From NCBI RefSeq assembly GCF_041886205.1, contig NZ_CP169029.1: a stretch of DNA of 64,000 nt; one strand, given 5' to 3'. The stretch comes from Escherichia coli (GTDB taxonomy: Bacteria > Pseudomonadota > Gammaproteobacteria > Enterobacterales > Enterobacteriaceae). The position numbers were made by a program. Numbering within the stretch: the first letter of the stretch is position 1; every line of letters starts with the position of its first letter. This document shows positions 7,201 through 8,311 of this stretch, in pieces.

Positions 7201-8311
7201 TAATCAGAATTGCGAGCCTGTACCACAACCTGCACGAAACCACTGCAACAGCTGTTGAAAAGCCGGAATGTACTCTTTATTGCAAACATTTCAGGGATGA
7301 AGTGAAGATGAAATGAGACGTAGTATCCACACCAAGCCGGCGTTATCCGGTGAGGCGCAATGTTGCGGGGGCTTTATCCCTGGTGGCATTGGTTGCTGGA
7401 AAGAGAAAACCCCCGCACGTTGAGAGGTAAAACCTGACAACAAAACGGGGGCTAATCTTGAAACCAGACACTTCAAGAATAGCCGCAAAATGTTGTCATT
7501 ACAACAAGGCGGCTATATGACGCTCGCGCAGTTTGCCATGACTTTCTGGCACGACCTGGCGGCACCGATCCTGGCGGGAATTATTACCGCAGCGATTGTC
7601 GGCTGGTGGCGTAACCGGAAGTAAGGTGAAAACGGGCGTCAGGCTGCCGTGATGGCAATATGCGCCCGAAACCGGCCGCAGGGGTAACAGCCTGCGGCCA
7701 TTTTTGTCTTTATCACTTCCACAAGTAAATATTGGCAACCCGAGCTGGAAGCATCATCCAGAGCACTCATGAAACGACTGTAACAGCTGTTGAAAAACCG
7801 GAATGCACTCTTCTTTGCAAACATTTCAGGGATGAAGTGAAGATGAATTGAGTCGTAGTATCCACACCAAGCCGGCGTTATCCGGTGAGGCGCAATGTTG
7901 CGGGGGCTTTATCCCTGGTGGCATTGGTTGCTGGAAAGAGAAAACCCCCGCACGTTGAGAGGTAAAACCTGACAACAGAACGGGGGCTAATCTTGAACCA
8001 TCAACAATTCAAGAATAGCCGCAAAATGTTGTCATTACAACAAGGCGGCTATATGACGCTCGCGCAGTTTGCCATGATTTTCTGGCACGACCTGGCAGCA
8101 CCGATCCTGGCGGGGATTATTACCGCAGCGATTGTCGGCTGGTGGCGTAACCGGAAGTAAGGTGAAAACGGGCGTCAGGCTGCCGTGATGGCAATATGCG
8201 CCCGAAACCGGCCGCAGGGGTAACAGCCTGCGGCCTTTTTTGTATCTGGCACCTATGAAAAAAGTCTTAACGCAGAACGCTAAGACTTTATTTTTCAAGC
8301 AAAAAAGATTA

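Follow-up and report, generated by a model that had tools for sequence, protein, structure and literature searches.

The chaA-kdsA intergenic spacer examined here, part of a 64,000-nucleotide window from an Escherichia coli genome, almost certainly holds a two-unit LDR array in which every unit forms a type I toxin-antitoxin module complete in itself, this being the best explanation of the region as a whole. The spacer is the site of two 476-nt direct repeats (7237-7712 and 7772-8247), and what defines such an array is found in it: head-to-tail units of approximately 0.5 kb between chaA and kdsA, with one ldr and one rdl gene each. The LDR locus at chaA-kdsA is a known system, in its known place and in a common allelic state. 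The annotation that follows is of two ldr/rdl type I toxin-antitoxin modules, with the antisense ORFs across them not counted as genes, and the importance of the region beyond correct annotation is slight.

The repeat array, its toxin genes and the opposing reading frames

Over positions 6500-9500 of the window (3 kb), the locus is up to 100% identical to complete E. coli chromosomes, in which the RefSeq gene order is chaA, two genes labelled "type I toxin-antitoxin system toxin Ldr family protein", kdsA and sirB1. The array, its toxin genes and its flanks comprise the following features:

6012-7112, plus strand: chaA (Na+/K+:H+ antiporter), left flank; RefSeq annotation, locus identical over window 6500-9500
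7237-7712, plus strand: LDR unit 1, chaA-proximal, "type 1", 476-nt core; repeat families D1 and D2, alignment limits
7506-7512, plus strand: Shine-Dalgarno AAGGCGG of ldr 1 (8042-8048 in copy 2), read from the sequence; invariant in LDR-D
7517-7624, plus strand: ldr copy 1, 35-aa toxin MTLAQFAMTFWHDLAAPILAGIITAAIVGWWRNRK with Thr9 and Gly29; Pfam PF13940 Ldr_toxin, WP_000170963.1
7674-7709, plus strand: intrinsic terminator of ldr mRNA 1, a 9-bp stem with 8 G-C pairs, then ATTTTTGTCT
7713-7771, no strand: inter-unit spacer, 59 nt, one per unit junction and missing in single-copy strains
7772-8247, plus strand: LDR unit 2, kdsA-proximal, "type 2", 476-nt core; repeat families, alignment
8053-8160, plus strand: ldr copy 2, toxin of 35 aa carrying Ile9 and Gly29; Pfam PF13940, RefSeq WP_000170954.1
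8210-8245, plus strand: intrinsic terminator of ldr mRNA 2, with the same stem as unit 1, then TTTTTTGTAT
8309-9163, minus strand: kdsA, right flank; ORF call and RefSeq annotation of the identical locus

The limits of the repeat were set by gapped alignment of both units with the three units of K-12, and the two units of the window are 95.6% identical over the 476-nt core, with a single 1-nt indel. Similarity of this extent goes far beyond chance expectation. A repeat search of the window returned start-to-start spacings of 535 and 536, as two adjoining direct-repeat families. The first-pass annotation had described two direct repeats of about 476 bp with a 535-bp period, and the alignment gives exactly its limits, with a period of 535/536. 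In the alignment columns, the 59-nt spacer upstream of unit 2 (7713-7771) matches those of K-12 (B and A) and is not homologous to the chaA-side flank. An ungapped repeat start at 7166 (86% identity) was rejected: the stretch 7166-7236 belongs to the chaA-side flank and resembles the spacer only at chance level, and the ungapped call therefore overstates the length of the repeat.

Each repeat had been proposed to code for a 35-aa Ldr toxin, residue 9 being Thr in the first copy and Ile in the second, and both statements are borne out. Against PF13940 (cut-off 27 bits), the peptide of copy 1 scores 91.6 bits (E 3.1e-26) and that of copy 2 scores 87.7 bits (E 5e-25), both across profile positions 1-35 of 35, and the difference at residue 9 is seen in the translations, which open MTLAQFAMTFWHDL... 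in copy 1 and MTLAQFAMIFWHDL... in copy 2, the two peptides being otherwise alike. The Fst/Ldr superfamily is marked by a hydrophobic transmembrane helix that contains PxxxG, by a conserved Trp that follows it, and by a C-terminus that is charged (PMC7472228, PMC2887945); both peptides can be read to contain these signatures, as P17-I-L-A-G21, W30-W31 and the C-terminal RNRK. In K-12, over-production of LdrD is toxic and is counteracted by RdlD (PMC4147584), and LdrA is an inner-membrane toxic peptide, presumed to be pore-forming, with ATP synthesis blocked (PMC12643268). By analogy with K-12 LdrD and LdrA, the Ldr peptides of the window would be inner-membrane toxins when over-produced.

The signals surrounding the toxin genes are present in both units. 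The AAGGCGG Shine-Dalgarno is located 7 nt ahead of each ldr ATG, and the terminator stem-loops (7674-7699 and 8210-8235) are followed by T-runs. An alternative in-frame ATG, 27 nt upstream of ldr, was considered and set aside; it is without such a Shine-Dalgarno, and the 35-aa start is therefore the supported one, RefSeq also starting at this ATG.

Opposite the toxin genes are two minus-strand reading frames:

7499-7738, minus strand: antisense ORF, 79 aa; ORF call
8035-8298, minus strand: antisense ORF, 87 aa; ORF call

As the longest ORFs in the spacer, these could be taken for real antisense genes overlapping ldr, and at 7 of 14 variable codon sites the change is silent in the antisense frame, compared with 5 of 14 in the ldr frame; this difference is not significant, and neither, in a selection test, is the spread of variable sites over ldr codon positions 1, 2 and 3 (7, 3 and 4, respectively). 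However, neither ORF has a Pfam match or a RefSeq annotation, and their N-termini begin in non-homologous DNA, that of one copy in the spacer and that of the other in the kdsA flank. The antisense frame complements ldr exactly, codon for codon, and is open because none of the ldr codons is TTA, CTA or TCA; that it is seen twice is due to the DNA being repeated. When copy 1 is compared with LDR-D, 20 residues differ in the antisense translation and 15 in Ldr, and the antisense frame in LDR-D has two stop codons, on account of which it is rejected as a gene. That these ORFs are genes deserves next to no credence, and the earlier description of them as artefacts stands.

Rdl antisense RNAs and the proposed control of ldr

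The features of each unit that bear on the expression and control of the toxin are as follows:

7321-7326, plus strand: candidate -10 box TAGTAT of ldr mRNA 1 (7856-7861 in copy 2); homology to LDR-D (TAGAAT) starts here
7404-7469, minus strand: rdl copy 1, antisense antitoxin RNA of 66 nt; 91.8 bits against Rfam RF01813, over model positions 1-66 of 66
7476-7504, minus strand: putative rdl-1 promoter, TTGTAA (7504-7499), 17-nt spacer, TATTCT (7481-7476), from conservation; start 7 nt downstream at 7469
7939-8004, minus strand: rdl copy 2, 66-nt antisense RNA; Rfam RF01813, 83.6 bits
8012-8040, minus strand: putative rdl-2 promoter, hexamers as in rdl-1, read from the sequence and from conservation

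A minus-strand hairpin and U-run in each leader (7428-7409 and 7963-7944) had been put forward as the mark of an antisense Rdl RNA, with a search of Rfam recommended. A scan covering all 64 kb of the window gave two RF01813 (rdlD) matches, both well above the gathering score of 50, covering the whole model and having every consensus pair formed. The hairpins lie within these matches and correspond to the Rdl terminator, in agreement with the proposal. Matches below threshold to sok/CssrC, an enterovirus element, mmgR and bxd were discounted as evidence; those to "sok", on the plus strand, scored 30.5 and 27 bits, short of the 59 needed for gathering.

Each rdl copy is complementary to the stretch of the ldr leader between -113 and -48 (relative to the ldr ATG at 7517 and 8053), and lies off the ribosome-binding site. 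This layout is known for ldrD/rdlD, in which Rdl overlaps the 5′ UTR of ldr rather than its ribosome-binding site (PMC4147584). The predicted shape of Rdl is a single-stranded 5′ tail followed by a long stem-loop with a U-tail, with folding energies of -26.7 kcal/mol (z -5.1) for rdl-1 and -27.3 kcal/mol (z -4.5) for rdl-2. The former is identical to K-12 rdlC over its 66 nt, and differs from rdl-2 at 6 of 66 positions, 5 of these being within the first 7 nt.

A consensus scan of 7100-8320 found no sigma-70 promoter, and the ldr and rdl promoters are therefore proposed from conservation only. The TTGTAA-17-TATTCT stretch is invariant upstream of all six rdl genes compared (both units of the window, and K-12 rdlA, rdlB, rdlC and rdlD), and fits 8 of 12 consensus positions, which places it under the threshold of the scanner. 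Rdl would serve here as an unstable repressor, of approximately 60 nt, of Ldr synthesis; what the sequence itself shows is its structure and this conserved promoter-like stretch. In K-12, rdlA represses LdrA at the level of translation (PMC12643268), and for ldrD/rdlD an RNase III-dependent dsRNA of approximately 21 nt forms, with both RNAs slightly stabilised in rnc mutants (PMC7373196).

Homology between the LDR-A/B/C-type units and the diverged LDR-D extends from the TAGTAT/TAGAAT box through to the terminator. We infer that the ldr mRNA starts near 7333, which would give an mRNA of approximately 370 nt ending at the terminator; this is reportedly about the size of the ldrD mRNA. RNA folding of 7333-7706 predicts a highly structured molecule (-165 kcal/mol, z -5.5), in which the GGCGG of the Shine-Dalgarno is paired with a block of the 3′ UTR at 7644-7648 (8180-8184 in unit 2), with a pairing probability of approximately 0.7 in both copies. 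The 3′-UTR block is nearly invariant in LDR-D. As a prediction without covariation support, this pairing would resemble the design of the hok mRNA.

A leader ORF, ldrX, was proposed by Gerdes and Wagner by analogy with mok, and figures in reviews as a hypothesis (PMC4147584). Among the leader ORFs overlapping the Rdl site, none stays in one frame when the two units, or those of K-12, are compared. In unit 1, a 20-codon TTG ORF (7458-7520) ends in ATGA over the start codon of ldr; in unit 2, a 1-nt indel brings the same ORF into frame with ldr, fusing the two; and the other leader ORFs shift frame among the K-12 units. With no leader ORF conserved in frame, a mok-like mechanism is therefore not asserted.

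In the mechanism proposed, the plus strand of each unit would give an mRNA consisting of a long 5′ leader, the 35-aa hydrophobic Ldr and an intrinsic terminator, and the minus strand would give a 66-nt Rdl RNA made from inside the ldr leader. Rdl, perfectly complementary to its stretch of its own ldr mRNA, would pair with it and prevent translation of Ldr, the block presumably arising from pairing approximately 50 nt upstream of the ribosome-binding site. The Rdl/ldr duplex would become a substrate for RNase III, and Ldr, if made, would insert in the inner membrane and arrest or kill the cell. The toxicity, the repression by Rdl and the role of RNase III are drawn from the K-12 literature on LdrD/RdlD and LdrA, and not from this strain.

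Within the transcribed part of the units, the diagnostic differences between type 1 and type 2 are clustered at 7463, 7467 and 7471, where Rdl has its single-stranded 5′ tail. As the differences between rdl-1 and rdl-2 also fall there, in 5 of the first 7 nt, each Rdl might discriminate its own ldr mRNA from that of the adjoining unit, and the two modules may be more than redundant copies. A joint proposal, that the units are under unit-specific Rdl control and that the full-length ldr mRNA is silenced by the Shine-Dalgarno/3′-UTR pairing until it is processed, is speculative and rather doubtful. If true, changes in copy number and gene conversion of the Rdl tail (TUM20902, EC332, TUM1886) would alter regulation and not dosage alone.

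The integrity of the units also bears on whether one or both of them might be decaying, non-functional remnants. Each has an intact 35-aa ORF with a full-length family match, a Shine-Dalgarno and a terminator, and on the opposite strand a full-length rdl, its stem-loop included, together with the conserved promoter stretch of rdl; copy 1 encodes the same peptide as K-12 LdrB, and the ldr ORF is open in all 27 units examined, from 13 genomes. These points argue against decay, although deletion of chromosomal Fst/Ldr systems has led to no phenotype being linked to any of them (PMC7472228), a single unit suffices in many strains, and among the 27 units, variation at 9 of 14 variable codon sites in ldr alters the amino acid. 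Decay is improbable, and two intact toxin-antitoxin modules are the preferred reading.

Copy number across E. coli and recombination between units

K-12 had been described as having three copies at this locus, correctly: at the same site, MG1655 has three units (ldrA, ldrB and ldrC, with rdlA, rdlB and rdlC) and a chaA-kdsA spacer 533 bp longer. The ldrD/rdlD pair of K-12 lies elsewhere on the chromosome. A comparison of LDR copy number across strains, which had been recommended, gives approximately 25% with one unit, 27% with two, and 48% with three or more among 5,426 complete E. coli genomes. The inter-unit junction, used as a 141-nt query, is complete in 4,084 of the 5,426, from which the single-unit share of approximately 25% follows. 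The two-unit query was found in one place at a coverage of at least 80% in 2,834 genomes, read as having one or two units; the split between one and two copies for the whole collection rests partly on the presumed joining of alignment pieces, and agrees with a smaller sample. This sample was drawn with a 5-kb flank-only query as 60 records at even steps down a ranking of 5,427, and contained 26 three-unit, 17 two-unit and 17 one-unit arrays, with array spans checked against annotation in eleven cases. Insertion sequences lie next to kdsA in 3 of the 17 two-unit arrays, and IS200C is found in 1 of the 17 one-unit arrays.

The two Ldr proteins of O157:H7 are identical to those of the window, with their order unchanged (WP_000170963.1, WP_000170954.1). 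Strain-to-strain variation in Ldr counts was tabulated already in 2010; a literature search on ldrA/B/C copy number in O157, with a comparative LDR paper in DNA Research (2002) outside its coverage, found nothing relevant. The two-copy state is not peculiar to this strain, and is ordinary, because roughly one in four complete E. coli genomes shares it. For reference-based analyses this has a practical consequence, as use of the K-12 ldrA/B/C naming would lead to units being mislabelled in approximately half of E. coli genomes.

Tandem repeats of approximately 0.5 kb can collapse in short-read assemblies, and with three or more units in approximately 48% of complete genomes, the count of two might reflect such a collapse in a strain that truly has three units. 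The two units of the window are, however, 4.4% different, and one is cleanly of type 1 and the other of type 2, without a hybrid signature. Several independent complete genomes also have the identical 3-kb arrangement, with 100% identity, and the genomes sharing the two-copy state include many closed O157:H7 chromosomes. Assembly collapse is thus very improbable, and the array is taken to have two units.

Typing of 27 units from 13 genomes separated the chaA-proximal and kdsA-proximal units into two types, with 11 fixed differing sites. The arrays of the window and of O157:H7 are pure [type 1][type 2]. The middle units of three-unit arrays are hybrids switching from type 2 to type 1, near 7241-7246 in K-12 and a B-strain derivative, and between 7471 and 7700 in E200139. 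Single units are either hybrids switching from type 1 to type 2 at differing points (WL164, 401656) or mosaics (EC32), and in some two-unit strains a type-2 conversion tract covers the 5′ end of the unit 1 Rdl. The outermost diagnostic sites are near the edges of the core, and the hybrid pattern therefore partly reflects position in the array, a caveat that spares the interior switch points of E200139, WL164 and 401656.

These hybrid units are what unequal crossing-over within a two-unit array is expected to give as its reciprocal products, and they would have arisen more than once. Array size would change via unequal homologous recombination, the window representing the unrecombined pair, and the three-unit array of K-12 and the single units of other strains representing the two reciprocal products. 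The pattern suggests that the two-unit state is parental and that the third unit of K-12 is derived. That copy number varies by recombination had been anticipated, and the one-, two- and three-unit arrays of complete genomes, with hybrid units in others, agree with this. As a by-product, the locus would offer a clean natural case of unequal crossing-over, having several independent switch points that can be set against a [type 1][type 2] reference.

The peptide polymorphism may be viewed in the same light. Thr9/Ile9 and Gly29/Ser29 are seen in all combinations and positions, and within K-12 itself LdrB has Thr9, with Ile9 in LdrA and LdrC. Given this distribution, Thr9/Ile9 is an old, shuffled polymorphism, and not specific to the window.

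Relation to known type I systems

The closest counterparts are the LDR-A/B/C units of K-12, which share with the window their site, orientation relative to chaA and unit architecture. The identity of unit 1 with LDR-C and LDR-B is 98.7-98.9%, and unit 2 shares 98.3% of positions with LDR-A. The K-12 array differs in having three units, the two-unit spacer of the window being 533 bp shorter, and copy 2 of the window (Ile9, Gly29) is unlike every K-12 Ldr, since LdrA and LdrC have Ser29. The two-unit array of O157:H7 is of the same allele class, with units 99.6% (unit 1) and 99.2% (unit 2) identical to those of the window, and nothing of substance distinguishes the arrays of O157:H7 and many other strains from that described here.

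LDR-D (ldrD-rdlD) of K-12, the experimentally characterised LDR member, has the same layout as the units of the window, with the leader, rdl promoter, Shine-Dalgarno and 3′-UTR block nearly invariant. It differs in being a single unit, at bcsG-yhjV, and in its peptide, which departs from copy 1 of the window at 15 of 35 residues; the inner stem of its Rdl has different bases, with complementarity kept.

Further afield, ldr/rdl is thought to work like hok/sok (reviews PMC4147584, PMC7472228), with which it shares a small membrane toxin, a long structured mRNA, and an antisense RNA located upstream of the toxin ribosome-binding site. The toxin families are, however, unrelated, and a leader ORF like mok is hypothetical in ldr (ldrX). 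The Fst/RNAII system (par of pAD1) has the toxin signatures in common with the Ldr peptides of the window, namely PxxxG, Trp and a charged C-terminus, but the antisense RNA of Fst systems covers the toxin gene at its 3′ end, whereas Rdl in the window lies opposite the 5′ leader. The ibs/sib modules resemble LDR as tandem type I modules within one intergenic region, whose number varies by strain, but they belong to other toxin and RNA families, with Sib overlapping the ibs coding region.

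The ldr 3' UTR and leader

Each of the two LDR units, direct repeats that encode a 35-aa Ldr toxin and the antisense RNA Rdl, carries the block GGGCGTCAGGCTGCCGTGATGGCAATATGCGCCCG in the ldr 3' UTR, directly after the ldr stop codon:

7625-7670, block in the first unit
8161-8206, block in the second unit

Between these units and LDR-D, the diverged K-12 unit at another chromosomal site, the block is better conserved than the coding sequence, and in the predicted fold it is paired with the Shine-Dalgarno and start region of ldr. The block may be a regulatory RNA element.

Upstream, the ldr leaders (7367-7519 and 7902-8055, plus strand) match Rfam RF01794, 'sok antitoxin (CssrC)', across all 157 model positions, with scores of 30.5 and 27 bits (E-values of 1e-4 and 9e-4), below the gathering threshold of 59. 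These sub-threshold matches may stem from a likeness of the ldr leader to seed sequences of that family.

Insertion sequences on the kdsA side of the LDR array

In some other E. coli strains, IS200C is inserted in the short stretch from the last LDR unit to kdsA, which in one of them also contains nested IS1414 and IS100. This stretch appears to be a repeated target of insertion sequences in E. coli. The insertion-bearing stretches in two such loci are:

3424-4282, locus L014
9424-13565, locus L015

Other features of the window

49774-49852, minus strand, C0299 sRNA (Rfam RF00119, full-length match, 109 bits against a gathering threshold of 40)
56561-60106, minus strand, autotransporter ORF of 1181 aa, containing the GGGTTT tract
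38588-38914, orfA of an IS3-family element
38911-39801, orfB of the same element
38869-38985, ALIL frameshift pseudoknot in the element (Rfam match)

The GGGTTT hexamer is present in 29.8 tandem copies (57513-57691), read on the minus strand as approximately 30 consecutive Asn-Pro dipeptides, and the length of this tract likely varies from strain to strain. In a related strain, the counterpart of the autotransporter ORF carries the annotation YpjA/EhaD.

The IS3-family element (~1.3 kb, 38533-39844) has terminal inverted repeats of 26 nt and, going by its end sequence, looks like IS629/IS1203. It interrupts a leucine-rich-repeat gene, leaving pieces at 37614-38582 and 39659-40363; the gene is uninterrupted in strain wlxctx60, and resembles SlrP/SspH2-like type III effectors.
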